The translations under genes and the position numbers were made by a program. Shown here in pieces: positions 1,691 to 63,925 of a DNA stretch of 64,000 bases (the stretch's first letter is position 1; the number at the start of each line of letters is the position of its first letter). The stretch comes from Ramazzottius varieornatus (taxonomy: Eukaryota; Animalia; Tardigrada): assembly GCA_001949185.1 (NCBI GenBank), contig BDGG01000003.1, forward strand, positions 4,647,092 to 4,711,091, read 5' to 3'. Below the pieces are notes generated by a model. That model saw only the letters and a program-made list of their open reading frames with translations. It had not been told where the DNA came from and searched no databases.

Positions 1691-1797
1691 AAACAAACTT
1701 GACCAGCTCATTTTCCCAAGTGGCGCATGGGGTCAGCCAAGAGAACCCAGAACGTGCGTCATGTGGGAATACGATCTGGTGAGTTTGTTTGTCGAGT
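1691..1797. repeat. TGGCGCA palindromic element (MITE-like), 1 unit, 3' of C1orf43
   Basis: aaacaaacttgac..AAGTGGCGCA..GTGCGTCA..gagtttgttt. Confidence 0.8.
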
Positions 1798-2483
1798 TGC
1801 CATTTCGCGATCTCTGACGTCCTTTTCTGTGATGTTTAGATTCTGCTTCATCCCCGACGGCTCAATAGAGATGGCAAAGAAAGAAATCTCGTGCGTGTGA
1901 TTGCTGGTGGCTGATGGGCAGGCTGAACAGTCGAACTGGTCAATCACGTTTCGGTTCTTTCCGGCCCATTGTAGAAGATGGATGTGGTTCGTCACGATGG
2001 GCTCATCCTGAATGAGGCGAGTGATAATCCTACTGACAACAGTGACTGTTTGCTGACGAGTGAGCTGTTCAACTGTTGCCGTTGTCAACCAAGACCCGAC
2101 GGGCCACAACACTGGTCAAAGCGGTCGTGGTCTATTGTTTGCTCTAGAACTGGCTCCTCGGACTTTAGCGGCGGCATTCCGAAACTGGCTCCATGAGCGG
2201 GTAAAATACTTGTTACAATGACAGTTGTCAGGTTGTCGGTGTCGGCTTTCTGAAGACTTTGCTTTTCAAGGATACCTTGACGTCTTCAAGTGATTTGGCT
2301 TTTGATGTAAGAGGGCAGTCGAGATGAGGAGCCATCACAAATGAGCATCTACCGTGAAGACCTCCAGAAGTTAGAAGTACAGTCCACCGATAGCAGCATG
2401 ACTTCGACTGACGTCTCTTGGGCTTTTTCGTGTCAGCACAGATTGCTGGCAGGATTTTCTCTTTTCATCGGAGAAACATTCAG

Positions 2484-5400
2484 ATGAGAGAGATTATGGA
2501 CACGTCGAAGCTCAGCTGGAATTTTCTCTTGTGGATTTTCGTCTATGTGGCTTTGAAGTTTTCCTTCGCGCATGGTAAGCTCATTTCGTTGATTTGTGGA
2601 GTTCAGTGCCAATTTGTGGAAGTTGGAACTGAGTATTGTTTTATGGAGAACCAACAACCGTGGTATTTAAAGGAGTTCCGATCCTTCACATGGACGTCAC
2701 GCCTCCCGTGGTGGCCATCGTGGGAACAGACGTCAAGTTGTCCTGCTCTGCCGTCCAGTGGACTGACGGCTACACGGTGAGCATTTGGCCTAGAAGCTTG
2801 GAATTCAGCAGAGGGAAAGACCAATTCAGTAAAGGAACAGACTCTTTCGTTGCAGATTACTTGGAGCAAGAACAGCACCGGTGAGGTTCTCTCCAAGAAC
2901 CTCCATATCGTCTCGGACCCGTCAAAGTACTCCGTTACCACTGTCACAAGCTCCGAACTTGGTAAGACTTTTCTGATGTAAGCTTCCAGCTGGCGTCTTC
3001 GTTATGGTCTTTTGTTCTTTTCGATGTAATCGGAAATGGAAGGCCCTCAAACAAACTCGAGCAGATCGTTTTCCCCAAGCGGGCGCAGGCTTCCAGCTAA
3101 TATCACCGGAAATGTGCGCTACTTGGAGAAACGATCTGCTCGCGTTTGTTTGCCGGCCTCTGAAAGTGTAATTATTCTTCCAGAGTCGACAACGTGGACC
3201 TTGACGATCAAAGATGCGATGCAGACAGACGGCGGCGAGTATACTTGCTCCCTGAAAACCGAACCGCCGCAGTTCGTAACTGTTCCAGTAAGTACCATCT
3301 TTAGATGCTGCTATTCCCATAGAATATTCCTTCATCGATGTTTTCTTTTGTCAGGTCATAATGCAGACTCCTGTGATATCAGACCTACCTACCGAAGTGG
3401 TCCGCTGGGACGTCAGCGAATGCTGCCTTTCTCGCGGTGTCTCTCCGCCCTGTATGCCCTTATGCAACACAATGGTCTTCGGCTTCGACATCTTCGAAGC
3501 CCTCCGAGTCTCGGACCGCTGTCGCTCCCACCACGACCACTGGTTCAAATGCCTGGCTAGCGAACGCAACCACACGCCCTGCTGCAAGAGACAGCATGTC
3601 CCCGAAAAGTGCATGGACCTCTGTCTGGGCAACTTCTCCACCGTCTTCCGCGAAGGCAACCTGGACTGCCTGCATTTCGTGGCGGTCATCTTTCAGTGTT
3701 TTCATGATGGCCGAGACGCCATCCCTACTCCACCACGGAATGTCAGGGTTGCGCGCTTGGGCACGGATGCCTTGAGGATTAGCTGGTCACCACCGTTGAA
3801 GCATGGACGACAGGTCAACTACACGGTGATCTATAAAGCGACAGGGAATAATGTGGGCCATGGGAAGGCTCTGGTACTGTTACCCAGTGTCGGTGTGGCC
3901 AAGACCACCTCTACTTCGGAACTTGGGTTGATTCTTCCTGGACTGATTCCTGGGGAGAAGTATCAGATTTACGTGGTTGCGCTGAACGTGGCGGGGTCCT
4001 CACAACCTTCGGAAACTGTCACGGTGGAAATACCCATACCGAAGACTGTCGGTCTCCCGGAGAGCCTCCTCGAAGGTAAACTCGTTCTTGTCTTTATTAG
4101 TGCAGCCTCATTGTTATTAATTCATTAAGCTCATACTGATTCAAGCTGATTTAAGGTTAGTTCGACCTCTTTGCGTTTCTCTTTGGAGATCGTTGGAGGT
4201 CGTTTTCTCAAGTGGCGCATGCCCTCAGCTAAAACAACCGAGGCGTGCCGCACTTGGGCAAATTCCACAAGATTGCTTTTCCAAGTGACGCACGTCTTTC
4301 TGCAGTAGCTCCGACAATGTGCGCCACTTCGGAAACAACCTTGTGGAGTTACTTGTCTATCTTACCTTCCATATTGAGAAAATTTGGCTAGTGTGCAACT
4401 TGCTGGATTTCATCCATATCTTAGATTTATACTTGCGACAAAGTTTGGTTGTAGGTATCCTGACAAATACAACACTGAATTCACTGACGGCCTTGAACGG
4501 TGACAAACGTCTGCCAAGTGTAACCGGAGAAGTCCTCGATGTGACAACCACTACAGATCTCAACTTACGAAAGACTGAGACTCTCCCTCAAGATGATTAC
4601 ATTGTCTTTGACAAGTGCTTCAAATCTCGCGACTTTCGCGCGACGTGCGCCGAAGTTTTCAAGGTGAGCAGTGTCATGGGCAAGAACGCCACGGTCATTC
4701 AGTGTCGCGACTCGCTACCCCGCTTCGTCAAATGCGCGGCGGACGGAGCGGACCACCGGAAATGCTGTACGCGCAACGCCGTACCCGACACTTGTACCAA
4801 CTGGTGTGCTGGACAACCCACTGGGCTCTTCGATGTCTGCCATGTCTTCCTGCCGAGAATACTTGCCTGCTTCAAAGAAGGTAATCAAATTCTTGGCAGA
4901 CCGGCAAACTAAACACCGAAGATTGTCAGCCCAAGTGGCGCATGTTTACATTGCTACTAACTGGAGACGTGCGCCACTTTTGATGACGATTCCTGCTCGT
5001 TTGGTTTGCCAGCTTCCCAGTTTGGAATCCTGCAGGCACCAGATACATCTCGATTTGTGAAGATAAGAACAAATGACTCAAAATTTGCAGATATCATGAT
5101 CATTAAAATTTATATGTCACTCGTTGCGTTGTTGTTTCAGGTCGACTGTTTTTGCCCAGTCAGCCACTAGACGTCGAAGGATCTCTTCAAGACGGTCGAG
5201 TAGCAGTGCAGTGGAGAGCGCCGGAAGTAAGAGCAGAGATGGTCGAGAACTACGTCATCACGGTGGAGGATCGCAAGACAAAGAACCAGTCTAATTTAGT
5301 GGTTCCAAAGGGAGGGAACTCGACCGTTCTCTTACCACTCACTTATGGTACCGAATATGAAGTCTTCGTACAAGCGGAAAACTTCCATGGACTGTCGAAC

Positions 5401-6465
5401 CACAGTGCCACGCTGCTAATCGAGATGGGCGAGCTGTCCAATAATTACGAGCAGAATGTCCAGCATGCTAATGACAGCTCTTCGGGACCTGCCATAGCCG
5501 TCGGAGTGGCTTTGGCCGGTATCGGCCTGATGGTAGCCTTCGTTGGGGTCGCTTACTGGTTACGAAGCAAACGGACCCGGAAGCTGACCACCCATCCCAA
5601 GTAAGGTTATTTCCATTCCATCATTTCAGACTCGACACCTCCCAGCGATCGGTTATTCAGTCATTGAAGTACTTGCTCTTCATCTTGGTGGCCGACAACA
5701 CGCGCATGCTTCCAGCAAAGCACAATGAACCGGTGCGCCACTTGAAAAAAGTGACGCACGGTTCCAGCCAGCAGCAACAAAAACGTGCGCCACTTGAGAT
5801 GACGATCTTGTGCCTTTCGTTTACCGACCTCCCATCTCGATTTCAACAATACGTCCTTTAGAAAGCCAATTTTGCTAACAGTTTAGTTCAGACGGGAAGG
5901 AAAATACTCCCCTGATTATTTTTAATGAGATCCTTCCTTGGCGACATCAGTGGAATGTCATTATTGGAAAACAGGAATGTCAAAGCTAATTTACTTCGTG
6001 TTTCGTGATGGTGACTTCTCGACCTGGGAATCCATCAACATGTCTATAAGCTTCATAAATTCTTGTCATACTAATTTTTGCAGATGCAACTCTGCCGAGC
6101 CGTTAGCCGAAGGAGAACAGCTTCGGAACCCAGTGAACGCCTTCTACATTCCGGGATATTTTGGGAAACGTGGAGTTTCACGCAAGACCAACTGCTCCAA
6201 CGATAGCGAGTCGTACGCCACTTCGTTCAGCTGTGTGCGCCAGGCCAGCGACGTCAGCGACGCCGTCTATTCCGACGCTACCGCTGTTTCCGACTCGGGT
6301 GCCTATTCATGGATGTTCAAGAACGACAAGAAGACTGCCGCGCAAGTCATCTCCCATAACCCGTCGCCGTCAGCCAAGCCTGTACCGCTACGACGCTCAT
6401 CCTGTTCGAGAACAACCAGCACTGAACAGAATATCTACGATAATAACCTTCCCATAAAACCATAA
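2484..6465 (+). CDS. Type I membrane protein: signal peptide, Ig domain, DB module, FN3, DB module, FN3, TM, cytoplasmic tail
   Basis: Spliced exons about 2484-2574, 2673-2776, 2856-2961, 3184-3288, 3355-4075, ~4455-4880, 5141-5600, 6084-6465. Ig motifs VKLSC..W..LTIKDAMQTDGGEYTC; DB-module Cys pattern CC..GV..C..LC / NHTPCC..VPEKC..LC; FN3 motifs PPRNV..WSPP..Y..L.PG..Y..V.A.N..G.S; TM AIAVGVALAGIGLMVAFVGVAYWL. Confidence 0.8.
3042..3158. repeat. TGGCGCA palindromic element, 1 unit, intronic
   Basis: caaacaaactcgagcagatcgttt..aaacgatctgctcgcgtttgtttg. Confidence 0.85.
4195..4360. repeat. TGGCGCA palindromic element, 2 units, intronic
   Basis: Two AAGTG(G/A)CGCA..GTGC(G)CCACTT units. Confidence 0.85.
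4896..5020. repeat. TGGCGCA palindromic element, 1 unit, intronic
   Basis: AAGTGGCGCA..GTGCGCCACTT with arms. Confidence 0.85.
5695..5835. repeat. TGGCGCA palindromic element, 2 units, intronic
   Basis: Two GTGCGCCACTTG half-sites with partner half-sites. Confidence 0.85.
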
Positions 6466-7465: not shown

Positions 7466-9798
7466 TTAGACACTCTGTGGCGCATGATGATTAGTTATAT
7501 TGGCTCTTGATGGAGACATGGTTGTTGTTGGTTCTTTGAGCTCTGTAGTCTTTGGACTCTTTCCTGTGGAGTTCCCCGGGAGGACTCTTGTGTCGCTGGA
7601 AGCAGGTGGAAAGCGCGGGGAAGAAAGACCTAATTGCTTGTCGGTTGACGTCGGGGAATAACGGGCTAAAGTGGAGGTGATTAAGGGCGTCTTACTTCGA
7701 TCGATGGTGGCGAACCCGTTCTCGTGCTGCTTGGACGTCTTCTCAACCGGCGTGATTGTCGTTGTAAGAGTTTCTTGGGCGAAAAACGTCTGCACTGAAG
7801 TAGGTCGGGAAGGGATCTTCGTTAGCTGCATGTCGCCGGGAGGGTTGGTATTCTCCACATCGAAAAGAAGACTCTGGAAAAATAGTTTAAAAGTAGCGGA
7901 AACATACTGTATGACAAGGAAACAGGCAAACGAACTCGGCATAATCGCTCAAACCAAGTGGCGCACGCTTCCTGCCACCTACAGTGCACAACTGCGCCAC
8001 TTGAAGTAAGTGGCGCACGGTGTCAACCAATAATACTGAGCACATGCGCCACTTGAGACAACAGTCTTGTCGAGTTTATTCGGCCTGCTTTCATAAACTC
8101 TGGAAAAACTGGAAAAAGTTTTCCACTCATTTTCTTCTCTTCAGAAAGCTTCACGGAACATTTCAGTTTACTTTTCTTGCTTTAGACTTGGAGTCGGAGT
8201 AATTACGGAGGCCGAGCATGGGAGAATCTTTGGCGGTGTAACGGCTATTGAATCGAGAGGCTGCCGTTCGATCGCCAATGTACAGAGTTCCTTGCTTCAT
8301 TTCCAGCTGAATAAAAGAAACGGTTGTTAACGAGGAAGGGTTGATGTTCCTTTTTGTGAAAGTACTTCAAAAGCAACCAGAGAAGTTAGTGGGGTCATTT
8401 CTTACATGTATTCGCGTCTTTTCTCTGACTTGATAGATCCGCCATACACATCCCCAAAACACCAGACCTAATGACAGCAACAAGATCCCGGCGCAGAAAG
8501 ACGATATACCAAACCAAGCGAGGATCCTATAAACAACACAAACAGATACTTCAACGATAAAAAATTTGTCAAGTGGCAAATGCGATGGTTTAGGCGGTCG
8601 AGAGAACGACAACTGCTACAACGACGTGCACCTGCGTACACGTACCTAGGATAAAGGCACATGCACTGTAAGCAGATGCAGTTGATGTCAGAAAAAGTAT
8701 GGGTGCGCGTCAGAACAACAGAAAAACGTTCAAGTCATGCAGCTACATACATGCGCGCGCAATTGGCCGCACAAGCAAACGTTTGCAACTGCATGAAAGT
8801 TGCTCCACTCTGTTAGCTGTTGACCGTAAGAAGGAAGAATTTCTTGCAATAATTTATGCGATCGTCTTTGACTGTATTTCTGTCTCCAAATTTGTCAACA
8901 TGACGATTTGCATCCTACAGATTGAGCTATCTTACTAATCGGCAAAACGCCCCTGCAGAGTTCATCACGAAATCTGGGACACTGCAGTTCACACTCTGTG
9001 GATCATGTCATTCCATGCCGAACATTAATCTTGCCAATCTGGCATACCAACACAACAATTACAGATGTGCTGGTCAATTCACCCTGGATAATACCGCCCG
9101 GGAGATATTCAACCATTCTAAAAGCTTTGCAATCAACGCTCAAGATCCTTCGAGAAATAATCTCCGACCTCCCAGACAAAATTTGCATGCGAGAAACAAG
9201 CTCTGCTGGCTTACCGTAACTTCACGTCCTCCGAGTTGTGAAAGTCCACGTAATAGATCATCAAGGTCAGTCCAGTCGGGATGAGAACGAAGGCGAAAAC
9301 CAAGAAGACGATCCTGTGATCCAAAAGTAAAATGAGTCTGAACGCAATTCTGGAAAAAGTGCGAGAGCTCGGTAAAAACACTCCACAGGACCTTTTCTCA
9401 AGTGGCGCACGTTTTCGGTGTTATTGGCTGGAAGCGTGCGTCACTTGAGACAACCATTCTGCCCAGTTTCGAGATCGTTATCCCGAGTGGCGCAAGTTCC
9501 CCATGTTACCGGCTGGAAACGTGCGCCATCCGGGAAAACGATGTTGAATAGTCTGTTTATCGAGTTCCTATGTATTTCTGGTTGGGACATCTCTAGCTAC
9601 ATATAAAAAAGTTTGTTGATTTTACGATGGTTTTTTGGAAGATGGAATATCTGAGATAACTCACGCAGCGATGGAGCAGCCTTTCCACGGTTGTCGAAGA
9701 TGGCGGCGAACCTTACAAAATTCGCACAAGCTTTTGCAAGTGGAAACCACCATGTCCGTGCAGCAGCAACAACAGCAGCAACGAGGTGTGCAGCACAT
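7466..9798 (-). CDS. Uncharacterised two-TM protein with N-terminal cysteine string and Ser/Thr-rich tail
   Basis: Five phase-compatible exons (about 9798-9665, 9349-9215, 8522-8406, 8307-8173, 7874-7466): MCCTPRCCCCCCTDM..|IAFRLILLLDHRIVFLVFAFVLIPTGLTLMIYY..|ILAWFGISSFCAGILLLSLGLVFWGCVW..|LEMKQG..|SLLFDVE..stop. Confidence 0.7.
7924..8087. repeat. TGGCGCA palindromic element, 2 units, intronic
   Basis: TGGCGCA 7959 / TGCGCCA 7993 and 8011 / 8045; both spacers 27 bp. Confidence 0.9.
9365..9568. repeat. TGGCGCA palindromic element, 2 units, intronic
   Basis: gagctcgg arm..two cores..cgagttcc arm. Confidence 0.9.
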
Positions 9799-13741: not shown

Positions 13742-14947
13742 ATGATGATGTTCGCCGGGACGACCGATCATCACACTGGTGGCAGAATCGCCCCTCCCGG
13801 AAATGGGCCCCATCGACACTGGCGCTTTCCGCCGTGGATGGTATGGGGAGGTCTTCACGAACAACAGAGAAATTACCGGAGTTTCAACCCTCCCCCTTTC
13901 ATCCGACGCATTCCACCTCGAAGTCATACCATCAGTTCCGATTTCAAGATTTGTGATTGCCCCATCGTCTGCTATTTTTCCATGTCCATTTCCTTGATAT
14001 TGATCGGATGTCTGACCACCTTCTTCGTGCTCGACGATACATTCGATAGCTTTTCACATGCGGTGTCGCAACTGTGGCTGGTTGGTCCGCTCTTCATCTC
14101 ATGCGGCATTGTTATCTTTGTGCGTACTGTGATATTCATGAGAAGGAAGAGAATGATGCAACGGCAAAGAACGGTGAAAACATGTTTTCAAATTTTCTGG
14201 CGACTGTTTATTTTTCTTGTTGACCGTTAATTATCTTGCTTATTTTATCTCCAGGAGCTGAGGCGAAGAAGACGTCTTCATCGAAGGTCCCCGACCGACG
14301 GACGCCACATCGATGTCGAAGCTGCCTGCAGTCGAAGGTATGAGCCTCGTAGAGCTACGCCAATGTGGAACCAATATCGATGAAGATTTTCATGTCAATT
14401 ATTTGGGTGCTCGGCAGCCATATTCGACAAGAACATTTATCGAATTGGCGCAGGCTTTGGGCCTGTAACACTGACAGCGTGCGTCACTTGAGAAGACGAT
14501 CCGGTCGAGTTTGTTTGCCGAGTTCCCATCTCGTTCATTATTCTAAACATCTTTTTGGTCGGTTCTTTTTTAGTCGCTAAAATAATGCTCGTTTTCCGTT
14601 TCAGGGATTCCTTCTCGTCGCTTCCGCCAGATTACGAGGCCGTGATAAATGGCGTATATTCCTCTTTTACTCCTCGCCATCATTCGTTGTCGTCAGCCCG
14701 CGGGCGTCGGCTTTCCCATCAGTACCAGCGTCCATCATTAGCATTCTTGAATCTTGAAGAGCCTCCACCTTCGTATGACGAAGTTACTAGACTTCCTTTT
14801 ACTACAAGAGCTCCGCGCTATGTCGATGTCCAAGCGGCGCTGGGACCAAATGGACCGATCTCAACCATCCAGAATGAAGTGCGCCGCTTCTCGACCAACC
14901 GTATAACTTCTTCCACAGGTATGGTTTCCAGCACAGAAAGTTTGTAG
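13742..14947 (+). CDS. Two-TM protein with PPxY motifs (PIRT/TMEM171/TMEM200-like architecture)
   Basis: Exons 13742-14173, 14255-14337 and 14605-14947 join in frame. Two hydrophobic helices, a basic stretch RRKR..RRRRR, then LPPDYE and PPPSYDE. Confidence 0.7.
14404..14528. repeat. TGGCGCA palindromic element, full-length 1 unit, intronic
   Basis: TGGGTGCTCGGCA...TGCCGAGTTCCCA termini. Confidence 0.9.
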
Positions 14948-15554: not shown

Positions 15555-18110
15555 ATGTTCACTCGCGGTGGCGGAAAAGTTTGTTCTACGGTGTAGGATG
15601 CATGCGCAGCCTCGATCCGGTACCGTGCTGCTGCTCATAGTTATTACTCATTACGTGCTTCACATTATATAACACACCGTTACATAATACAGGCTTACAT
15701 ACTGCTGTACACCCTTACATCTCTTACATCGCAAATTACACATTACCTTACAAGGCTCACATCGCACTCTCCTCACAGTAGTATTCTTTGCTTCTTCCCT
15801 GAAGTCGAAGGCAGAAGTACATCGGAGTGCTCCCGCAAATACATGTGATACTTCTTCGGGGAATCTTTTGAACCGTGGTATAACGCGTTCTGGTAATTCA
15901 CGCAGGGATCGGTTGTTGGATATACTCAGCGATGGTCTTATGGCGGCGGAGCGCTCTGCATCAACTACAAAATTCCGTAAGTGTGTATTATCTATGAGTT
16001 GTTTCTTCTTCGGTCTGTTGTCACAGTCCTCTCTGGTTTCAGATTCAGGCACGAGGACTAACCGGAAGTTTCCACAGGAGTAAGCCCATTGCTTCGACGG
16101 CAGGTTCCGACGACCGGGCCAAGTCATCGATGTCTCGCAAAGCAAGTCCGGATGGCCGATCCATACAAGCTTTTCGCCCTAAGAAAGTTTTGGTCCTGTC
16201 AAAGATCACCCGATATGAATTCGAGAAGCAGAAACAGTCACCGCTTACGGACGAAGAGCTTGCGGAAGCGGTAGGTATTATTCTCTATCTCGTAGCACTT
16301 GTGGGGCGCTCGGCTGACAAACTCGACAAAATCGTTTCTTCAAGCCGCGCACGGTCCCGGTCTTATTGAGGGAGCGCATGGGCCACCTAGATATCTGCAT
16401 CGCTTAATTACTCACGCTTTCATTTCTTTGTAGCTAGCAAAGAAAGGATCTAATCTAGCAACGTTGAAGAAGTACCATGACTTTCACAAGGAACAAGCCC
16501 ACAACATTGTGAAAAGTCTCACGTAGGTGCGAGTTGACTTTTACTCACCTGTAGTCCTGTATAACAGTAATTTGATCGTAAGTACCGGCAGAAGAACCGA
16601 AAGTGAGAACGCTATCAGTATCGGAGCCTCGCGTTACAGATTTTCTTTTGTTTCAGAGAAAGAAAGATCGAAGCTCACATAGTGAATCGTTACGAGTACG
16701 GACCGGAGACTGTCAAATGGGCTGACGCCATCATTACCGCCGGTGGAGATGGAACGTTCCTGCTCGGAGCTAGTATGGTTAAGGATGCCAGAGTACCCAT
16801 AATAGGAGTCAACACAGACCCAAGAAGGTACTTTACGGACAGATTAAACGTTAACCGTCCAGTTCAAGATGTTCCTTTCAGATCCGAGGGTTATCTTTGC
16901 CTGCCGAAGGAAGATTCTCTCAGCTTCCCTGCATCGTTAGACAAGCTTCTCGACCAACAGTTCCGTTGGGCGTATCGTCAAAGGATCCGGGTCGAGCTGT
17001 CAGGTCCGCATGCCATGGAAGCTCCTGTTGAACTACACGAGCAAGAACTCGATTTTCCGCGGCACAAGTTCGCTGACTTTGCGGTGGACCTTGACGATAA
17101 GAACGAAGAACCTTCGTCTAAAGACAATGCAACTTCCACTGCGCCAGGGACATCTAGTCAGGAGACCTTCTCCCGCGTCCTCCCCGAATGTGCCTTGAAT
17201 GAAGTTTTTATCGGTGAATCTCTGTCTTCACGGTAGGTACGGGATTCTTTATCGCTGTAGTTACTTTTTATTCTTTGGGAGCTCAGCAAACAAACCCGAC
17301 AGGATCGTTTCTTCAAGTGCCGCATGCTTTCCGCTTATAACACCGTAACCGTGCGCCACTTTACATGACAATCAGAATCGAAAAGATCGGTTTTTTAAGT
17401 GGCGCAGACTTACAGCTTATAGCACCAGAAATGTGCGCCACGTGAGAAAATGGTTTTGTCGATTTGGTTTACTGCCTCTGATTTCGCTGGTTCGAGGTTT
17501 TTTCGTGTTGTAGGGTTTCGTACTATGAAATCACCGTGGACAACTATCCTGCTCAGAAACAGAAGAGCTCCGGTGTGGCCATCTGTACGGGAACTGGTTC
17601 GAGGTCTTGGGCCTTCAACATCAACAAGCTGACGAAACAAGCTACTGCCTCCATCATCAATATCAGTACGTTCCGGGCATTAGTACCAAGTTACTATTTA
17701 CTGATGTTCCTTGTTGTGTGGTTGCAGTTCGAGAAACTTCGCTTCTGCCGATTCCCTCTGAAGATGAGTACATCGAGATGATCACTTCCCGTTTCAACGA
17801 CAAACTCTTGTTCGATCCGAGTGACGAAAGGATGGTCTATACAGTTCGCGATCCGGTGTCGAACAGAGTGTACGGTGCCGAGAACCCAAGAGGCTATGCT
17901 CAACGGTGAGGTGCTACGTACTGCCGTGTTCGCCGAAAGGTTTCAGATGGAAAACGAGAGGTGTCTTTTGTTAGGGTTACGATCAAGTCTCGATGCAGCG
18001 ATGCTTCGTTGGTCATCGACGGCGGATCTTCTTACAAGTTTAACGATGGAGCGACCGCAGTGTTCACAATCAACCCAGAAGACGCATTGCGGACTGTACA
18101 GTTGTTATAG
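15555..18110 (+). CDS. NADK2: Mitochondrial NAD kinase 2
   Basis: KVLVLSKITRYEFE, GGDGTFLL, IIGVNTDP, RQRIRV, ALNEVFIGE, QKSSGVAICTGTGSRSW; stop TAG 18108-18110. The 5' exons (15555, 15906-15976) are less certain. Confidence 0.92.
16302..16390. repeat. TGGCGCA palindromic element, degenerate or truncated, intronic
   Basis: Left arm ctcggctgacaaactcgacaaaatcgttt plus a decayed core. Confidence 0.65.
17277..17480. repeat. TGGCGCA palindromic element, 2 units, intronic
   Basis: tgggagctcagcaaacaaac arm and two cores. Confidence 0.9.
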
Positions 18111-46185: not shown

Positions 46186-46800
46186 TGTCCGATTTTATTA
46201 AATTTTATTGAATCATTTATTTTTACTGGTTTTTCACTCAGTCTTTATTTGTATAGAGCATGTCCAGCACAGTTTCTTCTCCAGGAAACAACGGACCCCA
46301 GAAATATTTTCTCCGGAAGTCTTTACGGAAGCCATCAACAAGAAACTCTTCGACCTTCCGTCCACACAAGACCCGAAGAAAATGGTTGCCGACAAAGCCA
46401 GTGCCAAGCTGAAATAACCCGCTTCGGACAGCGGTGATAGTGATGGAGCCGACGATAACGGAAAACGTATGAAAGAGAAGCGGGATGGTGTCATGCATCC
46501 TATTCATTCCAAAAATACGTGCAAAGCACCTGGGCGTGTGCCGCTCTGCTCGAAACACCCTAGCATCTATATAGACAAGGACAGACTGGAAGAAATTCAG
46601 CGAGTCCATGACCCTGGCGCTGACGACCGTGAAGGTTTCAAAGGCCTTAGGTGGTATGGATATAAAGTGTTAGAGCACTTGATTGGAGGTGAAGAGCAGC
46701 TGAGACAGTGTCGAACGAAGTTGGACAAGCGAAAGGGAGGCATGACTCGCATGGTGGGAAGAAAGCTGATCGAAGTTGTCTTAGGTACGTGACTGAAATT

Positions 46801-46990
46801 TGGGCAAACAAATTCGCCGAGACCTTTTCCAATTAGCGCACGGCTTCAGCCGATAACCGTAAAGACGTGCGCCACTTGCAGAAAGGATCTTGTCGAGTTC
46901 GTCCAAGCGGCGCACATGTCGGGTGTTAATGGTTGGACGAATGTGCCACTTGGAAAAAATATTTTGTCGCGGTTGCTTGCCGAGCTCCCA
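46801..46990. repeat. TGGCGCA palindromic element, 2 units, pseudogene intron
   Basis: Two cores; right end gccgagctccca. Confidence 0.9.
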
Positions 46991-48175: not shown

Positions 48176-48280
48176 AGGCGAACTCGACCAGATCGCTTAT
48201 CCAAGTGGCGCATAACTCTAGCCACTGGCACTCACAACGTGCGCCACTTGGGTAACAATCGTGTGCCGACTGCCTCGGTC
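48176..48280. repeat. TGGCGCA palindromic element, 1 unit, intergenic
   Basis: Core 48206 / 48240, 27-bp spacer. Confidence 0.9.
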
Positions 48281-49579
48281 CCCGAATATCAAAGGCCAGT
48301 GCACGTTTGAAAAGGAAGTTTGGGCCAGTAAGAAGTTTGGGTCAGACGATTCCGAAACAGAGGAACGGAAGTTCGTACGTACGTCTGTACAGTAATTCAC
48401 ACCCATGCTTTTTCCTCAGTTTTCTACGGTTGAACTCTCAGTTTGCCGTCTCTGCGTCTGGCCGAAACTTCCCTTTCCTGCGTGTACCAATATTTTGATA
48501 CGAGGAAAAAAGGAGGGAAAGAGGAAAGGAAGAGTTTCCCGTAAACATTCTGAAGCACGCTCCGTGATCCCAAAGTGTTTCACCTGTGAGCGTTTTCGGG
48601 AATTCATCAGCAATTAACGAGAATTGGGATTGATTTTGGAATGAAAACAATTGAAAAGAAAACCTGTCTTCAGAGTGCGTCAGAACAGCTGGCTGCTTCG
48701 CTGCTCGTTCGCTGCCGCGCTGAGACAAGTGTCACAGCGTGTTGAATATTTGGTGGAGACAAGATACACGGTTCGTAGTGTCCAAGGACAGGCCAAAATC
48801 ATCCAAGAACCTCTGTTCGGTACTGCACACTGTGCAGTTTTTGTAGGTGCGTGATGGAATGCGCTCGGCCTTTGTACATAACACAGCACGCCATTCAGAT
48901 TTGTATTCATGTGCGTGAGGTTGTGCACCAGATGCACTTGCCATGGTGCAATGCACTGCGCCGGTACAAGAGCGATATCGTAACTTCGTGACTCATAATA
49001 TATAATCTTCATTATCGGATGGTGATCCTTCGTACTGAATTGCTTTCTCTCTCCCTCTCTTGAACTGGTGTACTGCTGGTGCCTGTTCTCTTATCTCTTC
49101 AGTCCATGATTTGAGGTGACTCACGACTGTCTAATCTTGTTCGAGAATTGCCACGTCAAGAGGCTGACAAGCCAGGCAAGCAAACCGCCGGCAACTACAC
49201 CGACGCAAGATCCTCTGTGACTTTTGCAGGCTTTCTGCGTTCCCCTGGCTGCTCGACAAGCTGTCAGGGACTTTCTGGGACGTTCTTCACACATAAACCA
49301 ACAGACGGTGTTGATCAGATTGCTGGCCTATTGATCGTGGTAGGTTTCTTCAGTCGCAAACGCCCAGAAGTTAACGGTTGAGTATGAGCGGCGCATAAAG
49401 TCACGTAATCTTGCGCCTGTTTACTGCTAGTCACGTGGTACTCCGCGCAGTTACTCGGTTACGGTCCTAAACGATGACGTAATCTGAGCTTGCGAAATCG
49501 ACTCGCAAAGCTCATGCTAAAATTTTCGGAAAATCACGTGATTTTTCGCCCATGTGCAGCATTAGGTCCGTCACGTGTC

Positions 49580-49925
49580 CGGATCGCTTCTTCAAGTTGC
49601 GCACATTTTCAGCCAGAAACACCGAAAGCATGCGTCACTGTGAAAAATGGCCAAACTTGACAACATTGTTTCTCCAAGTGGCGCAAGCTACTCGCCAGTA
49701 CGAGGTAAAACTAGTGGAGTTGGCAATGTGAAATTGCACGGTGGGGTTGTCAACAAGAGAAACAGAGAGANNNNNNNNNNNNNNNNNNNNNNNNNNNNNN
49801 NNNNNNNNNNNNNNNNNNNNTTCTCTTGTTACAACTTCCCCATGCGATTTTGCATTGACAACTCCTCTAGTTGTACCTCGTAACGCTGCAGCTGTGCGTC
49901 ACTCTGAAAAACAGCCGAGCTGGCG
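49580..49925. repeat. TGGCGCA palindromic element, 2 or more units, one split by the TA-flanked insertion
   Basis: Intact unit at about 49594-49640; interrupted unit at about 49676-49903. Confidence 0.85.
49701..49880. mobile_element. Tc1/mariner-type TIR element or MITE with TA target-site duplication; interior hidden in the N gap
   Basis: TA|CGAGGTAAAACTAG...CTAGTTGTACCTCG|TA, with about 60-bp imperfect inverted arms on each side of the gap. Confidence 0.75.
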
Positions 49926-50424
49926 CGAAACCTGTGACTTCCACAATGTCGAAAATGCATTTAAAGAAGGTTCCGTTTTTGAACTCTTTCGAAGTTAAAC
50001 ACCAAAAGGGCGAGAAATTTCTCTCGAAAACGGTTGAGATAAGCATCTAAGGAAGAAAATGTGGCAGGCGAATCCTGGATGAGGGTGAAATATGATGAAG
50101 ACATTCTGTGATGTAAGGAAGACATTTTCTGCTGATCGGGATAACGCTCCTTTATCATGGGTCTTCAGCAACGACTCTTTCCTGTCCATCAATGTGGATG
50201 GCTCGCAAGATGAGCACGGGACTAACGCCCAAGACCTAGATGAGTTCGCGCAGCCCCTTGCTCGGTTGCAATCTGATGGACCAGATCACTATGTCCCATG
50301 ACAGAAAATATAACGCAGTTGGAATTTTATGAAAAGATACTTACCTTCCCCATAATATTATTGGACGTGTGACTAACTCCGGGATAAAAATAGGATTTCG
50401 ACAAAGAAACGTACAAGATGGATA

Positions 50425-50480
50425 TCAGAAGTGGGGCAAACTTCTAGCCAAAACCAATGAAAAAGTGCGCCACTTCGGGC
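50425..50480. repeat. TGGCGCA palindromic element, core only, intergenic
   Basis: GAAGTGGGGCA..agccaaaacc..GTGCGCCACTTC. Confidence 0.75.
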
Positions 50481-50679
50481 CAACGTTTTTGTTCATTCCA
50501 TCTGCCGATTTCCCAAATGCACTGCGCGGGTACGTTAGTGAAAGTCAAATCTTCTTCACACCACCACATGGCAAAGTTATGAAATTCTTATAAATCGTCA
50601 AACCAACAATCCACGAAGCTTTGTCCACAAAAGTTTTCTCTCGGCCTACGCATCAACCGATTTATATCTTATTCACAAA

Positions 50680-52221: not shown

Positions 52222-53802
52222 ATGGATCACTTGAGTAAGTGCAGTGTTTACTGAGGCAAACTTGATCTTTAAGCTGGAGCGTAACCAGTGTTTGTTGTTT
52301 TTGCTACTCTACCTCTTGGATTCCAGCTATTTTTCGTGAGCATCAATTGGTATGGGATAACTGGAATAAATGTCTTTGCTTGGTAGTTAACAGCGACGCC
52401 AACGCGAAGAGGATCCAACGGGTGGAAAGCTCCTTCACGGCAGGCGAGCCCTTAATGAAACCTGGACGTGTCCTTCTGGGCGAAGGAGTGCTGACCAAGA
52501 TCTGTAAGAAGAAAGGAAAGGCCAGGCAGTTCTTCTTGTTCAACGACATCCTCGTGTATGGCAACATTGTCATCAATAATAAGAAGGTGACTTACGTTAA
52601 CGAAATAGTTGGGGAGCTCGGCAAACAAATTCAGCGGCATCATCATCTGAAGTGGCGCACTTTTCCATTTCTACAGCTAGAAGTGTGCGCCACGTGCAAA
52701 AACGCCCTTGTAGCGTTTGTTTGCTCGAATTAGCAGCTCTGCTTTCCTCTACTGTTCGAAGCCATACAATCTAACTGCGGTTTCTTTTCGTAGTTCAAGC
52801 AGTTTAACAAGCAGCGAGTTATACCCCTGGAAGAAATTAAGCTCGGCGACATGGAGGACGAAGGCAGTAAGAACTTGATATCGTCATCGAGGATAACTCT
52901 ATCGTGCATATAAATGCACTGTCAGCGCATTCTCCTCCTTTCCTTTTTTGTAGATATCAGAAATGGCTGGTTCATCTGCAGCAGAAGCAAGTCCTTCGCG
53001 GTATTTGCTTCGACACCGATAGAGAAGCAGCAGTGGATTGACCATATAAACAGGGCTGTCGCCGATCATGTCCGACATGGTGAGAAGTTCTTCGGACTAA
53101 AGTAGAGTTCTTGTACTAAGCGAACCGTCCGTTTTTTCCAGCCAAAGTAATCCTTCCCTCCACTTTCGCCGCAACAATGGTCCCGGACAGCGAAGCGAAA
53201 AGCTGTATGCATTGCCAAAAGTCCCAATTCACCTTCGTGAACAGACGAGTAAGCTAGGACGCCAGCAGATGCTTTGAACAAAACCGTTGTCCCAAGTGGC
53301 GCACTCTTGCAGCCAAAAACAGATAGATTGTGCGCTACTTGAGGTAACGATCCTGTCCCAGCTCTTACCCAACGTACTTCAGTTCCGGTTGTTTACGGTT
53401 TACCCATGGTTCTTTTTCTCTCTTTAGCATCACTGCCGAAAGTGCGGCTACGTTATAGGTGCCTGTTGTAGCCAGTTCGCCGTGATCCCGGAACAAAGCA
53501 ACAAATCTCAAAGAGTGTGCCCGACCTGCGCAGCTGAACTACAACGAATCGAACAGCGAAACGGCCGACTGTCCAACGGTAAGTCGTTTTATTGCTTGTT
53601 CAGACAACTTTATTGTAATTTCCATCACCGTTCTGTAGGGTCCATGGGTAATACTCCAGAGTCTCCCGCGCCGGAAGAGTCCGACGACGACAGCTACGGC
53701 AGTCCGAATGGTTCGCGCCAAGCCCACTCTGCCGGCATCTTCTACGACCGTGAAAGCCATATCAAAAGACTGTCTTCCGAAGACGAAGGCCAATCAGTAT
53801 AG
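52222..53802 (+). CDS. PLEKHF2: PH and FYVE domain protein (phafin)
   Basis: NSDANAKRI..PGRVLLGEGVLTKICKKKGKARQFFLFNDILVYGNIVI, RNGW..KSFAVFAST..EK..W, RRHHCRKCG, RVCPTC, acidic ESDDDS tail. Confidence 0.93.
52611..52740. repeat. TGGCGCA palindromic element, 1 unit, intronic
   Basis: ggggagctcggcaaacaaa arm plus core. Confidence 0.9.
53275..53365. repeat. TGGCGCA palindromic element, 1 unit, intronic
   Basis: CAAGTGGCGCAC..GTGCGCTACTTG. Confidence 0.85.
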
Positions 53803-54282: not shown

Positions 54283-56319
54283 TCACATAGTACGAGTGGG
54301 ATGCCATGGATCGGTAAAGAGCTCTTTAGGCAGCTGCGTACAGTGCGTCTCCTGTAAATCTTTCATATACAAGTGCGCTAAGTATATCGTCAACTTGCGT
54401 CTTGTATCAAGGTCCAACTTTCCTCCAATGTCCAGAGGAAACACTACATCTCTGGGAGAAGCCATTGCCGTTTCGACGAGCAGGCTGTTCCAGGTATGAA
54501 TCGGAGAACTCTGACTATCTTTCAGGTATTCAGCTTCCAATGCTCCTGAAAGATTTCAGTCTGAAATGAAACTTTACGGAACTTTGAAAGGGAACATCTT
54601 CGCTTACTTTTCGAGTTTGGTTCGGCTCGCAGCCAGGCGTTCAACAGGGGAAAGGTTTCCTGGTTGACGATCTGCGGATACCGATGAGAAAGAATCATCT
54701 TCAGCAGAACATCGCCCCTGTTTACTAATGCTTTCACTTCGCTATCGTGCACCGAGAGGATCTCGTCCATCGTTCTCCTGATCAACAGAATGGGCCCGTT
54801 GTACTGACACAACAGCTCAGCCACATTCAAATTCAGGTAGGTGCGGACTGAATGCTTCACTACTGTACTCATCGCTGGAGGCATCCTTGCGAGCGCCAGC
54901 GGCAGAAGATCGTCGAAAGTGGCATCCAACACCACCCCTAAACCAGAAGAAACATCTTCAGCATTGACAACATCAACGTGGAGCTCGACAGACTCGTCCA
55001 GATCATCTCCCCGGGGTGGCGCACACTTCCAGTGAATACCACTGGAAACGCGCGCCACTGCGACAAACTCGATAACACTGCTTTTCCAAGTGGCGCACGC
55101 TTCTGCCAATAACACTGCCAACGCGCTCCACTTGAAAAAACCGCCTTGGACGAGCTTTGATGAGCTTCCAACGTCAAAATAATCACTTTTCTTCTTACCT
55201 TTCATTTGCGGGTAGGCGGAAGCCAGCCAGCTTGCCGGATACCCACCGATGGACCAGGCGAAGACCATGACGTCCGCTTCACCGAAGCCTAGATGTTCAA
55301 CAGCATACCGCATGACGGCGTCAGCAGCGTGGAGTTCTTGGCTTGGTAGTGGTTCGCCAGTTGAGCAGCCGAAGCCTGGGTGGTTCCATCCGAGGACAGA
55401 GTACTGGAGCTGCATAGGTGTGGCCATGATACCTATCTCGTAGAAGCCTGCGTTGCCTTCGCAGCAGATCACCAGAGTTCGTCCCTTTTGGTCTAGAGTG
55501 TGGCGGTTGTCGACGAAGAGCGTGTCGATGAAGCTGCCATCGAATGTGCGAATCTTGGCTCTTTTTGTGTTCAGGTTCCTCTGAAAACAGACAGAACCAA
55601 GTTAAGACCCCCCCCCCCTGCCTACCTTCCAGCACTACGAGGGAAAAGACCAACTTTGAGTATGCAGGTAGGCGAGATGTAATTAGCTTTTATCTCATGC
55701 TCCTACGTACTTCCGGTACAGCATCAAGGATGCGGATAAGTGCATGCAGTTGCTGAAGCATCGTTTTTCGACTTACGCTTTCGATAAACTTCGCTCGACC
55801 ATCTCTCAAAGCAGGCATAAGCATCGCTTTCATGATCTGTAGCGATCCGGGATACAGCATTCTTCTGCCAATGGTCTTGAGCAGAACATATCCGATGATC
55901 TTCCAGACGATGCCTAATCGACCCATCGAGCGATTCGCCATCGGTGACAGAATGGGTTTCTTCAAAGGCGCACTCGCCAGGTACTCGACAGGAAGACTGG
56001 CAAACTCAAAGTCGTACATCTTGAGCAACTGCAACCTACTTTCTTTCGTTGGATTCTTTCTGTGTTCGAGGAATGTCCGAAGAAAGGTGGTGTACTGCGG
56101 GTTGGATCGTCTTCCAACACCTTGCACGAGGACAGCGGCGCCCGCGACGGCGACCACAAAGCCGAATGGCCGAAGCCATCCCATGTCTTTGGCGTACACT
56201 TCGTCCAGAGCGAAGCCATGTCGGTAAAATGCCCCAAGAAGCCAGATGGGAGAGTAGATCTTGAAGAGGATCCATACGCAGCGAGTGGCCAGCAGGACGT
56301 ACGAACTATACCGCTCCAC
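54283..56319 (-). CDS. ABHD16A: Phosphatidylserine lipase ABHD16A (BAT5)
   Basis: GRRMLYPGS, VICCEGNAGFYEIG, LGWNHPGFGCSTG, AWSIGG nucleophile elbow, LDATFDDLLPLA, LIRRTMDEI, THCTQLP. Confidence 0.95.
54985..55170. repeat. TGGCGCA palindromic element, 2 units, intronic
   Basis: Two cores in an ABHD16A intron. Confidence 0.85.
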
Positions 56320-57164: not shown

Positions 57165-59992
<2,828 letters not shown>

Positions 59993-60370: not shown

Positions 60371-60424
60371 GTTTGGAGGGAATACAGTAAAAATCATCAG
60401 ATGCAAATCTTTCCCTCTAATTGG

Positions 60425-60540
60425 GGAAGCCAGCAAAGGAGACGTACAAGATCGTCGTGTCAAGTTGCGCACCCTTCCGCTTGGTAACAATGAAACGATG
60501 CGCCAGTTGAGGTGACGATCTTGTACGAATAGTTGGCCGA
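60425..60540. repeat. TGGCGCA palindromic element, 1 unit, between convergent genes
   Basis: gtacaagatcgtc..AAGTTGCGCAC..TGCGCCAGTTG..gacgatcttgtac. Confidence 0.85.
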
Positions 60541-60725
60541 TCTGTCACTTCATTGCGAAAGTGCAATATGGATAGACAAAAAGGAGGGAAGCATTGAGAA
60601 GCATCAAGTATCGTGAAACCGTAAGAGAATATTGAAATTAGGATTCCGTTAAGCGAGTGAAAACCGTGGAAAGTACCGGGGTTCGAACAAGGAACAGTAC
60701 GAGTACCAAAATTCCCACATTTCTT

Positions 60726-62420
60726 CTACCAGAAATCATCGCCGCCATCTCCACGCCGTCCACGGCCTCTTCCACCTCCGCGTCCGCCTCCACCGCGATG
60801 CCCTCGTCCGGCTCCGTATCCATGCTGAACCCGTCCTCCGCCTCTTCGGCCACCGCCGCTGCGGTTCCCACCTCGGAATCCGCCCCCTCCACGTCCTCGG
60901 AAACCGCGGCCTCGACCACCAGCCACACGTTCACTAAAGCCGGGCATACCGATCACCGACTCATGCGGGCGACCACCACGATCAGGCACATTACCCATCA
61001 CCGTCTTGTTCACGTTGCACTCGGTGAACTGGCGCACTCCGTGGCTGGAAGTCTTTTCGAGAAGCAGCATGTCGTCACGAGCGGACAGAATGTCCGCCAC
61101 CCCGACCTACGGAAACCGGAACTGAAAAGCCGCCCACCAAAGCGGAAGATCGACATCTCAAGTGGCGCACGCTTCGGATTTTTAACAATAAGAACGTGCG
61201 CGACTTGACGTAACGATCTTGTATGTATGTCCTTATGCCCGTTTTCTACGGAAATTATGCCAAAGCTCAAGCAGGTAAGTGCCCGGCACGGCCCTGGCAG
61301 CAAACTTCGCAGAAAAGGGTAAATTCAACGAGCCAGCAAAAACAAAGTTTGTTCGTCAGATCGTTTCTAGATGCATGACGAGTGATTACCTTTGAATCGA
61401 GGGACATTTCGTGTCGGCTAGGCATGCACACTTCGCTCAGTTGCTTTTCCTTGTTCCGCGCTTTCTCCGACCACGTGAAAGACTGGACCGTCACATCGAA
61501 ACGTTTCAGCAACATTTCGCGACGAAGACGGTACTCAGCGCTCAGAGCGTCGTTGATCTGCTCGAGCTGTTGCCACTGAGCCTGGCTCAACTGAGTTTTC
61601 AAGAGCGCGTTTCCCAGAACTTGGGGTGGAAGATTCTGCATGGCGTTCTGTAGGGTCGTTTCTATCTTGGAGAAAATGCCTGCTGTATCCACGTTTTTCG
61701 GCGGTACACCCAGTCCCAACGCGCTACAGATCTTCCTGATGTCGTCCTCTACCGGAGAAGAGGCCACTCCGTTCTGCATACTGAAGAGATAAAAATGCAG
61801 GGCGATAACAGACAAACGAGAGATCGGTGCGCAAACTGTACCGTCCATCTCACATACCTGCATACTTCCGGTTCATGATACGTGCGAGACAGAAAGTATG
61901 CAGGTACGTGAAAAACGTATGGAATGTCGCTCAAGTGTGTCTATTTCGAAAGAACCTCCTTTCCTTTTTCTAGAAAGCCGGCAAAGTTGTCAAATGGATC
62001 TTGAACAGTTATTAGACCGCTGCTAAACCTTTTGTCCGGTCCAAAGTTGGTGTAGTTCATTCGAGCAGCTGCCAGTTCGCCAAGAAGGAAGTCCAGCAGC
62101 AGCAGACGATTCTCCGGAGTCGCCAGTCGTTCGGCCAACGGTGCGCTCACTAGGCGATTATACGGACACTCCAGCTCGTGTAAGAGACTGCTGACATTCA
62201 TAACGAACGAGTTGAGGTCTTGTGGTGACTGCATGGCGTGGACTTCTTGCTGAAGACGGACATAGCCTTGCAGCTGTTTCGAGATCGACTGAACCAGCTG
62301 GCTGAACTCTGGAGATTCCAACCCTTGGTTGACAAGCTGCTTGAGGCTTTCTTGGCTTAGCGCTTGTCCTCCAAAGGGCACACCCTGTAGCTCCTTCAAG
62401 ATTTCCTCGTCCGCAACCAT
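60726..62420 (-). CDS. FAM98A: FAM98 family protein with RGG-rich C-terminus
   Basis: SSLLHELECPY, RLLLLDFLLGELAAARM, EYRLRREMLLKRFDVTVQSFTWS, KTVMGNVPDRGGRP, RGG tail. Confidence 0.92.
61135..61230. repeat. TGGCGCA palindromic element, 1 unit, intronic
   Basis: TCAAGTGGCGCACG..CGTGCGCGACTTGA. Confidence 0.9.
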
Positions 62421-63264: not shown

Positions 63265-63715
63265 ATGAGCACAGTCCAGCAGCTTCAGCGCGGTTTCGCC
63301 AATCTCTTGACCCCCAACGAAGCTGACAAGAAGCCGGTGATTTTGGTGCTGGGCTGCACAGGGCGCACCGGAAACCTCGTGGCACAGGAGCTGGAGAAGC
63401 ACGGGGACGTCGTTGTCCGCCGGACAGCTCGTAAGCCCGACCAGCTCAACGCGTGGAAAGCCGAAGGGACAGATGCAGTTTTCCTTAATATGGACGACCC
63501 AAAGACGTTCGCAATGGCCATGCACGGGGTTGACCGTCTGTACTTGATGACGGAAGCTACCGTTGGAATGTCGACACATGGGAAGACCCTCATTGATGCG
63601 GCGGTTAAAGCCGGTGTCCAACATGTCGTCAAGCTTTCTTGCTACTATCAATGGGACTGTATCGTACCTCAGTGGGCTTGGCTTTAACTGACCGACACCT
63701 ACCTCAAGAATTCAG
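63265..63715 (+). pseudogene. NmrA-like atypical SDR (NAD(P)-binding), first exon, with in-frame TAA; gene runs off the window
   Basis: ILVLGCTGRTG, GVDRLYLMT, KTLIDAAVKAGVQHVVKLS. The frame continues past TAA 63685-63687 as LTDTYLKNS to a G|GTAAG donor. Confidence 0.7.
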
Positions 63716-63721
63716 GTAAGA

Positions 63722-63925
63722 GGGAACTGAGAACTCGGCAAGCAAAGTCGAAAGTTCGCTCTTCTAAGTGGCGCACGTCCCCAGTAAGTAACAATGTGAA
63801 CGTGCGCCAATTGGGAAAGCATGCAAACTCGACTAGTTGGTTTCCTGAATGGCGCACATATCCAGCTAATTTCACCACGTTGTGCGCCACCTCGGAAAGC
63901 AATCTTGTCGGTTCGCTGAGCTTCC
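63722..63925. repeat. TGGCGCA palindromic element, 2 units, intronic
   Basis: Core 63769 / 63803 (27 bp) and a second core. Confidence 0.9.

Follow-up and report, generated by a model that had tools for sequence, protein, structure and literature searches.

The analyzed window, a stretch of 64,000 nucleotides from the genome of the tardigrade Ramazzottius varieornatus (contig BDGG01000003.1), contains numerous copies of a short palindromic element whose core is a dyad of two inverted AAGTGGCGCA half-sites separated by a 27-bp spacer. The element appears to be a dead miniature inverted-repeat transposable element (MITE), and we consider it rather probable that its dyad is kept by selection as a protein-binding site of fixed geometry. 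For the copies of the window, the analysis demonstrated the family identity, the uneven conservation, the fixed spacing, the placement outside coding sequence, and the independent decay of the two sides. All element counts refer to this one window, and genome-wide figures are extrapolations from it.

Dyad Detection and Copy Number

The dyads were identified by a fuzzy scan for AGTGGCGCA-gap-TGCGCCACT with gaps of 15–40 bp and ≤3 mismatches in 18 bases. The scan returned 43 matches at a gap of 27 bp, 7 at 26 bp, and ≤2 at any other gap, and ten third-order Markov controls gave a mean of 0.2 matches at 26/27 bp. At ≤4 mismatches, the window contains 53 cores; core 49677, with a degenerate right half near an assembly N-gap, was added by hand. 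The resulting 54 cores form 36 loci (19 single, 16 double, and 1 triple) with a mean spacing of 1,774 bp, in agreement with an earlier note on this DNA that estimated about 36 loci, at least 50 cores, and one locus per ~1.8 kb. The ten gaps given in that note were also correct: 27 bp at 7959, 8011, 23739, 31196, 38814, 48206, 58208, and 63769, and 26 bp at 22146 and 23657.

The elements cover 5,860 bp, or 9.2% of the window. If the window is typical, scaling to the R. varieornatus genome of 55.8 Mb (PMC5531438) gives an extrapolated ~30,000 loci; for scale, S3 Table of the same paper lists 65,730 unclassified repeats. Rfam analysis of the window identified one tRNA only and no match to the element, and the element was not among the 4 rows returned by Tandem Repeats Finder.

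Uneven Conservation of the Half-Sites

Conservation was assessed by a core-blind search based on arm columns −41 to −4 and the spacer, in a leave-one-locus-out mode, with a score threshold of ≥16 and 0.1 false matches expected. All 68 matches (68/68) were located in known loci and contained the near half-site at ≤3 mismatches. Identity was 0.918 in the near half-site, 0.67 in the spacer, and 0.577 in the arms, on which the matches were selected. The far half-site showed an identity of 0.862, lowered by five matches with 7–8 mismatches because copies with a 26-bp spacer were read out of register. In 30 simulations of uniform 33% decay (planted copies, substitutions only) scored in the same way, half-site identity was 0.665 with a maximum of 0.698, and only 1.8 of 54 simulated cores had ≤2 mismatches, compared with 46 of the 53 observed. 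At the spacer divergence of 0.33, 14.6% of cores would be expected to have ≤2 mismatches in 18 bases (p = 2e-31). The core-blind search and the simulation therefore exclude ascertainment as the source of the pattern. The uneven conservation proposed in the earlier note thus persists when copies are collected without reference to the core (0.918 versus 0.577 in the arms), and the uniform divergence that the note set against its own proposal was not observed, the half-sites exceeding the simulated 0.665.

The degree of core mismatch was not related to spacer identity (rho −0.03), and the variance of spacer identity was binomial (ratio 1.01); a mixture of old and young copies therefore fails as an explanation, and the copies look equally old. 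All 44 exact AAGTGGCGCA half-sites (44/44), as well as 85 of the 90 half-sites with one mismatch, belong to dyads with a gap of 26/27 bp, the 5 orphans being close to the 3.8 expected by chance. Within the half-site, where ascertainment is even, CGCA contained 15 mismatches in 424 bases (3.5%) and AGTGG 64 in 530 (12%; p = 1e-6), so the half-sites, described earlier as nearly invariant, are not invariant to the same degree throughout. The edges are sharp: identity is 0.94–0.97 per base in CGCA, falls to 0.74 and 0.59 in the next two bases, and is ~0.65 in the inner arms. Sequence context is not the cause of this conservation, since the same trinucleotides (GGC, GCA, AAG) and CpGs located in the arms are kept at 0.4–0.75 only. 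In an arm-only scan (score ≥14), 6 of 56 matches had no half-site versus 1.9 expected by chance; among them, 27037 is a shifted match adjacent to a known locus and several are located in open reading frames (ORFs), so that a few core-less arms may exist.

Fixed Spacing

The spacer was 27 bp long in 46 of 53 cores, 26 bp in 7, and of another length in none (0/53). Arm stretches of equal size were unchanged in 37 of 61 cases, shortened by one base in 8, and of other lengths in 16; lengths other than 0/−1 are thus absent from the spacers (0/53) and common in the arms (16/61; p = 2e-5). This narrow distribution confirms the fixed spacing reported earlier. With the 27-bp gap, the distance between the CGCA tetramers is 31 bp, which corresponds arithmetically to three helical turns. 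A 1-bp spacer deletion is present at 28235 in contigs of sequencing runs X14 and X17, and X14 contains a further low-depth deletion at 33055; both runs disagree with the window at ~1% of exonic sites and probably represent another strain.

Transposon Family

By comparison with the library in Tables S1 and S3 of Peona et al. 2024 (PMC11071193), the element is a catalogued palindromic non-autonomous DNA transposon family. It is listed as ramVar1-0, -6, -8, -16, -23, -26, and -39 (#DNA) and ramVar1-7 (#DNA/Sola), together with many raw entries; the listed family entries are 103–125 bp long, and ramVar1-0/-6/-7/-23 are 113–125 bp. The half-site is contained in 69 library rows, and, counted by eye, ~50 RepeatModeler entries from ramVar1-0 to -55 represent this element alone. 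The arm and spacer consensus of the window, also compared by eye, agrees with these rows except for two arm columns and one spacer column. Library subfamilies differ in the arms and have the core in common, and an 82-bp dimer is the consensus of ramVar1-25 and -50 (PMC11071193). The element has the features of a MITE, being short, non-coding, and interspersed in many copies (36 loci in 64 kb) with terminal inverted repeats (TIRs). The old-MITE origin suggested in the earlier note is thus supported. As regards a match to a described MITE family lacking binding or a footprint, which that note had named as counting against a binding site, the family match was found in Table S3 of PMC11071193, and the sequence itself is not new. 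The same half-sites, 27-bp middle, and arms are treated there as a transposon consensus only, and the tables, unlike the present analysis, carry no remarks on uneven conservation, spacing, or binding.

As for the superfamily, the target site duplication is given in the library (PMC11071193) as 'unclear' for ramVar1-0, -6, -16, -23, and -26 and as 4 bp for ramVar1-7. The flanks of the window copies have T at −1 in 45/55 and A at −4 in 29/55 cases, followed by GGG. At the 22 loci with both arms, a 4-bp A-N-N-T flank duplication gave 40 of 88 matching bases versus 32.5 by permutation (p = 0.02), and the inner two bases gave 20 of 44 versus 12.3 (p = 0.007); this match level is the one expected if both copies of a duplication had lost a third of their identity. 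A 4-bp AWWT/AWDT duplication and TIRs beginning with GG are hallmarks of Sola1 (PMC3845634), and because the weak A-N-N-T signal would fit AWWT, the element is likely a Sola1-like MITE. The Sola1_NA MITEs of Bombyx and Rhodnius described in that paper are non-coding and have GG-starting TIRs and a 4-bp duplication, as is faintly visible here; unlike them, the tardigrade element is almost wholly palindromic and ~33% decayed, and no autonomous partner or transposase was found. None of the 69 library matches listed (PMC11071193) was a long entry bounded by these termini. Passenger transposition may account for the movement of some copies: ramVar4-518 (Table S3), a 490-bp hAT entry, carries a nested copy with intact half-sites and a diverged spacer.

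No transposable element families common to R. varieornatus and Hypsibius exemplaris are reported in PMC11071193, and its Hypsibius table contains 0 of the 69 half-site matches. The loci covered in runs X14/X17, which are few, carry the element, and no joint skipping an element was found among the 15 of 85 joints listed for DNA run X1, from which the window's assembly may derive. X1 contigs cross 11 of 12 loci unbroken, which argues against near-identical young siblings. In runs X21 (organism B) and X22 (organism C), 0 contigs matched positions 26040–28330 at 90%, which is no proof of absence.

Element Structure and Genomic Placement

The monomer consists of a 41-bp arm, a half-site, a 9-bp inner arm, and a 9-nt asymmetric loop, followed by the mirror image, and single-core copies span 118–127 bp. 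Since the 27-bp spacer itself comprises two 9-bp inner arms and the 9-nt loop, the ancestral element was one hairpin of ~125 bp. Outer arms match a single arm consensus in 61 of 72 cases, with 29% substitutions and 46 indels in 2,445 columns. The left and right arms are 0.59 identical within a locus versus 0.56 between loci; the two sides of the element have decayed independently.

Coding sequences are avoided: 31 of 36 loci do not overlap a crude coding mask. The loci with cores at 22144, 22826, 23655, 28116, 31194, and 33030 are skipped by "RNA-type" contigs, that is, contigs from sequencing runs guessed to be RNA. Displayed introns are mostly 62–75 nt long, and a monomer-bearing intron of 194 nt has approximately that size plus one element. 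Host strands were assigned from ORFs. The loop has the same orientation as the host strand in 26 of 39 cores (by locus, ~15 versus 9, counted by hand), which is no clear bias given that cores within a locus are non-independent and the strands are putative.

In loci with several cores, the periods are 52 (n = 4), 73–76 (n = 8), and 81–85 bp (n = 6), and adjacent loops are oriented alike at 15 of 18 junctions. Helical phasing of the tandem cores is suggestive (R 0.75, from three to five junction types). Origin of double cores by in-place duplication was considered and rejected: in 13 pairs, neighboring spacers did not resemble each other more than spacers paired at random (p = 0.16 and 0.36). 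With the elements removed, separate loci are never <518 bp apart, a minimum reached by 0 of 50,000 random placements, whether uniform or restricted to non-coding-like positions, and the coefficient of variation of the gaps is low (0.67; p = 0.001–0.007). Close inverted Alu pairs are depleted, with verified deletions (PMC3215922); because any two palindromes form an inverted pair, the empty zone below 518 bp may likewise reflect deletion, a parallel that bears on locus spacing only and not on motif conservation. For 54 independent insertions, ~21 gaps of <450 bp would be expected, close to the 18 multi-core junctions observed, so neighboring insertions may have fused; the 15/18 junctions with like-oriented loops and the 82-bp dimer consensus of the library suggest that many doubles were dimers from the start.

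Possible Explanations of the Conservation

According to the mechanism considered rather probable, one old burst of insertions would have been followed by loss of mobility. The arms and spacer would then have decayed by about a third, with the inverted AAGTGGCGCA half-sites, CGCA most of all, and the 27-bp spacing retained. A host protein is predicted to bind both half-sites together, this binding being maintained by selection; because the CGCA tetramers lie three helical turns apart on one helix face, a protein dimer that would read the duplex sequence of both half-sites at once is the simplest candidate. As a first guess, the binder may be a DNA-binding domain domesticated from a transposase, SETMAR and HIM-17 being the analogues, and it would act within gene bodies, on chromatin architecture or as a repressor, and not at promoters. 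A promoter role appears unlikely because the motif is present in 3.9% of upstream regions (PMC11609603, Table S1) versus 21% of 500-bp window tiles, although sites were defined differently in the two sets and their density in the window may exceed that of the genome. The other roles named in the earlier note (insulator, chromosome pairing, condensation, or recombinase site) are conjectural. In a broader and rather speculative extension, which we regard as unlikely, one dead transposon family would have been turned almost wholesale into a genome-wide lattice of evenly spaced, fixed-geometry docking sites. In this lattice, paired CGCA tetramers would be separated by three helical turns and tandem cores by 5, 7, and 8, and its function would be to organize or protect the chromatin of a desiccation- and radiation-tolerant tardigrade.

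Several points weigh against selection for protein binding. The claim that nearly every copy is selected is a strong one: among the Caenorhabditis motif pairs discussed below, promoters are a minority. Parthenogenesis in R. varieornatus (PMC11175437) may also weaken selection per site. The 26-bp spacing is tolerated and a 27-to-26 deletion segregates, so the spacing is not absolute. The strain comparison, available for two elements, has too few sites and no power: none of the three located single-nucleotide polymorphisms (SNPs; 0/3) is in the half-sites, which make up 72 of ~350 bases, one deletion is also outside them (chance ~0.4), and one further difference was unplaced. The p-values for the target site duplication are 2 of 24 uncorrected tests, no transposase family was found in the 20 window ORFs scanned, and every count comes from a single window. 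In addition, no tardigrade study of the element by chromatin accessibility (ATAC) or chromatin immunoprecipitation (ChIP) was found in the open-access literature.

Among the alternatives, an ordinary MITE, with a core that is simply the transposase-binding site kept in mobile masters and a pattern produced by subfamilies, recent copying, or ascertainment, would accord with the cataloguing of the family, with subfamilies that vary in the arms around a common core, and with the dimer consensus of the library. Subfamily masters, however, are symmetric, yet most divergence is private to one side of a locus; X1 contigs are not broken by young siblings, and ascertainment is excluded as described above. 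This explanation is largely refuted and has become very improbable. Equally doubtful is the hairpin-stem option of the earlier note, that is, a DNA cruciform or a pre-mRNA hairpin with a stem of ~10 bp closing a 27-nt loop. Eight of ten folded single-core copies beat their shuffles at z below −3.5, and left and right arms have more derived changes in common within a locus than between loci (2.19 versus 1.47; p = 0.002). However, no symmetric changes were found at half-site positions 0–8 in 47 cores, those of the inner arms equal the expectation under independence, G-U pairs (17) do not exceed A-C pairs (23) on the putative transcribed strand, and the inner arms, which could extend the stem, are only ~0.65 conserved. 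As the half-sites lack compensatory changes, a selected hairpin is unlikely; the surviving folds and the within-locus sharing can be attributed to ancestry and to palindromic subfamilies, such as those of the library, which the arm covariation fits. Ectopic gene conversion homogenizing the most similar stretch of the copies might be favored by the very high copy density and by the many breaks that a survivor of desiccation and irradiation probably repairs. Shared 31-mers are rare, however, and two 10-bp islands with sharp edges around a 33%-diverged middle are below the length expected of conversion tracts; we regard this process as the least credible of those considered.

A protein-bound dyad might also persist without benefit to the animal, either because the bound protein shields its footprint from damage-induced mutation or because conversion drives copies to the intact motif, breaks favoring the unbound allele and being repaired from the bound homolog. 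Such processes would explain conservation in 68 of 68 core-blind matches regardless of position, with no need for selection to act separately at tens of thousands of loci, and the sharp edges (CGCA 0.94–0.97, next bases 0.74 and 0.59) accord with them. On the other hand, the shielding required would be large, about ten-fold, and shielding alone poorly explains the absence of other spacer lengths (0/53 versus 16/61 in arms), as the spacer bases substitute freely. Shielding or drive is therefore a minor possibility in our estimation; if true, the motif would owe its persistence to a different mechanism that is likewise unusual.

The family is known, and the constraint pattern appears to be new as far as the open-access literature shows: no paper describing it was found in open-access full text, the scope of which leaves out Dfam, Repbase, and subscription journals. 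Known co-options of MITEs concern a minority of copies, and here the half-site is kept in all core-blind matches (68/68), which suggests constraint on almost all copies of what is apparently the main repeat family in an extremotolerant model animal. The 47-bp dyad provides an exact bait for finding the predicted binding protein, and in-vivo reporters (PMC11609603) and CRISPR editing (PMC11175437) are available for R. varieornatus.

Individual Loci and Other Features of the Window

The coordinates of all loci are given in Table 1.

Table 1. Dyad loci of the window. The strand of all 36 loci is given as "."; numbers in brackets are core positions.
Locus	Strand	Cores	Context
1678..1804	.	single (1719, gap 27)	putatively between genes
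3038..3164	.	single (3079)	putative intron of DB/fn3-domain gene (from flanking ORFs)
4170..4369	.	double (4211 gap 26, 4284), period 73	putative intron
4893..5019	.	single (4934)	putative intron
5657..5835	.	double (5698, 5750), period 52	putative intron
7916..8094	.	double (7957, 8009), period 52	
9360..9571	.	double (9401, 9486), period 85	
14403..14529	.	single (14444)	putative intron
16302..16428	.	single (16343), right arm lost	putative NAD kinase gene intron
17275..17483	.	double (17316, 17398), period 82	putative NAD kinase gene intron
19133..19259	.	single (19174)	putative V-ATPase d gene intron
22103..22228	.	single (22144, gap 26)	dynamin/OPA1-like gene intron, skipped by RNA-type contig
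22785..22984	.	double (22826, 22899), period 73	dynamin/OPA1-like gene intron
23614..23822	.	double (23655 gap 26, 23737), period 82	in intron 23614–23846 skipped by RNA-type contig
26049..26175	.	single (26090)	also in runs X14/X17, one spacer SNP
26909..27035	.	single (26950)	downstream of QPCT gene
28075..28305	.	triple (28116, 28168, 28220), periods 52+52	QPCT intron; X14/X17: 1-bp deletion in third spacer (27 to 26)
31153..31279	.	single (31194)	GT-AG intron skipped between 31144 and 31339 (NOT2/3/5-family gene)
32989..33197	.	double (33030, 33112), period 82	GT-AG intron skipped between 32958 and 33269
36646..36772	.	single (36687)	
37557..37759	.	double (37598, 37674), period 76, loops in opposite orientation	
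38771..38970	.	double (38812, 38885), period 73, loops opposite	putative RRN3 gene intron
42471..42671	.	double (42512 gap 26, 42586), period 74	
46066..46192	.	single (46107)	
46791..46991	.	double (46832, 46906), period 74, loops opposite	
48163..48289	.	single (48204)	
49554..49762	.	double (49595, 49677), period 82	last half-site degenerate, near assembly N-gap
50389..50515	.	single (50430)	
52610..52735	.	single (52651, gap 26)	putative PH-domain gene intron
53254..53380	.	single (53295)	putative intron
54974..55173	.	double (55015, 55089 gap 26), period 74	putative ABHD16 gene intron
58165..58364	.	double (58206, 58279), period 73	putative phosphoglucose isomerase gene intron
59616..59742	.	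single (59657)	putative phosphoglucose isomerase gene intron
60422..60548	.	single (60463)	
61120..61246	.	single (61161)	putative DUF2465 gene intron
63726..63932	.	double (63767, 63848 gap 26), period 81	

Just downstream of locus 49554–49762 there is an assembly gap (a run of 50 N), to which its degenerate last half-site may be related. At 50466–50520, the right arm and flank of a copy resemble ramVar1-729.raw of the library by eye, and this copy may lie in a duplicated segment.

The window has a GC content of 48% and a CpG observed/expected ratio of 1.03 and is occupied by metazoan genes with short introns. A 240-residue exon of the glutaminyl cyclase (QPCT) gene is 100% identical to RvY_08115-2 of R. 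varieornatus and 72% identical to the Hypsibius exemplaris sequence. A tRNA-Leu(TAG) gene is located at 29475–29555, and the long ORFs at 42858–44357, 45230–45985, and 13577–14230 have no Pfam match at E 0.01. The QPCT intron with the triple-core locus contains a second inverted-end repeat (28338–28540), unrelated to the dyad element; the depth of run X1 is 822 in bin 27944–28607 versus ~25 elsewhere, X1 contigs break there, and the repeat is probably a younger high-copy MITE. In addition, 219 bases (26176–26394) with non-canonical ends (GC..GA on the + strand) are absent from the X14 and X17 contigs. Through this skip, a secreted-looking gene loses its initial coding stretch, and the join is next to the element at 26049–26175; the skip may be a strain deletion, an odd splice, or an assembly artefact.

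A metagenome scan for the 20-base dyad identified 7 loci, all of which lacked both the arms and the density of the tardigrade element, and a scan of viral contigs gave 0 matches. The same half-sites, at a distance of 26 bp, form the center of a long foldback palindrome (L001:1-205) that differs in its arms and has repeated GGCGCA-like motifs; this palindrome adjoins a decayed retroelement-like stretch and may reflect convergence or distant kinship with the tardigrade element. GC-rich bacterial contigs (L003:1039, L004:728, L006:131 and 1215, L007:1005) also contain intergenic palindromes in which the half-site is repeated at a distance of 26 bp. The two copies in L006 flank one gene, and a similar gene is beside the copy in L004. 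These bacterial palindromes are apparently repetitive extragenic palindromic (REP)-like repeats unrelated to the tardigrade element.

Comparison with Known Systems

The half-site itself corresponds to the STREME motif MRv-8 (AGTGGCGCACD), for which Ishikawa et al. 2024 give 312 sites in upstream regions of R. varieornatus (PMC11609603, Table S1); in the parts of that paper available, it is listed only and not discussed. The Hypsibius motif list of the same source has no motif with GCGCA, and its sole TGCGC motif, MHe-37, is unlike the half-site. A holocentromeric function of the element was considered and dropped, the related H. exemplaris being called likely monocentric (PMC13320866).

Two features of a co-opted MITE motif pair are present in the window, namely, motif conservation (0.918 versus 0.577 in the arms and 0.67 in the spacer) and fixed spacing. 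The m1m2 motif pairs of the CERP2/CELE2 MITEs in Caenorhabditis are bound by HIM-17 and show raised phyloP (PMC9757741); as in the tardigrade, the pair is MITE-borne, has a set spacing, is kept above its neighbors, and occurs in thousands of copies. However, CERP2/CELE2 carry two different motifs with demonstrated binding and promoter function, whereas the tardigrade half-sites are identical and inverted. Moreover, 284 germline-specific promoters contain the Caenorhabditis pair versus ~4,000 pairs in closed chromatin (PMC9757741), and in the tardigrade essentially all copies keep the half-sites, which seem to be rare close to start codons (3.9% of upstream regions versus 21% of tiles).

The dyad may work like CERP2/CELE2 with HIM-17 or like Made1 with SETMAR, membership in this class depending on a binding result. 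SETMAR binds the inverted terminal repeats (ITRs) of Hsmar1 as well as Made1, with phased nucleosomes around the sites (PMC6326780). Made1 is a palindromic MITE with many intronic copies, as is the tardigrade element, and is bound by a domesticated transposase domain. The density differs, with ~6,300 ITRs in a 3-Gb genome for SETMAR (PMC6326780) versus one locus per 1.8 kb in the tardigrade window.

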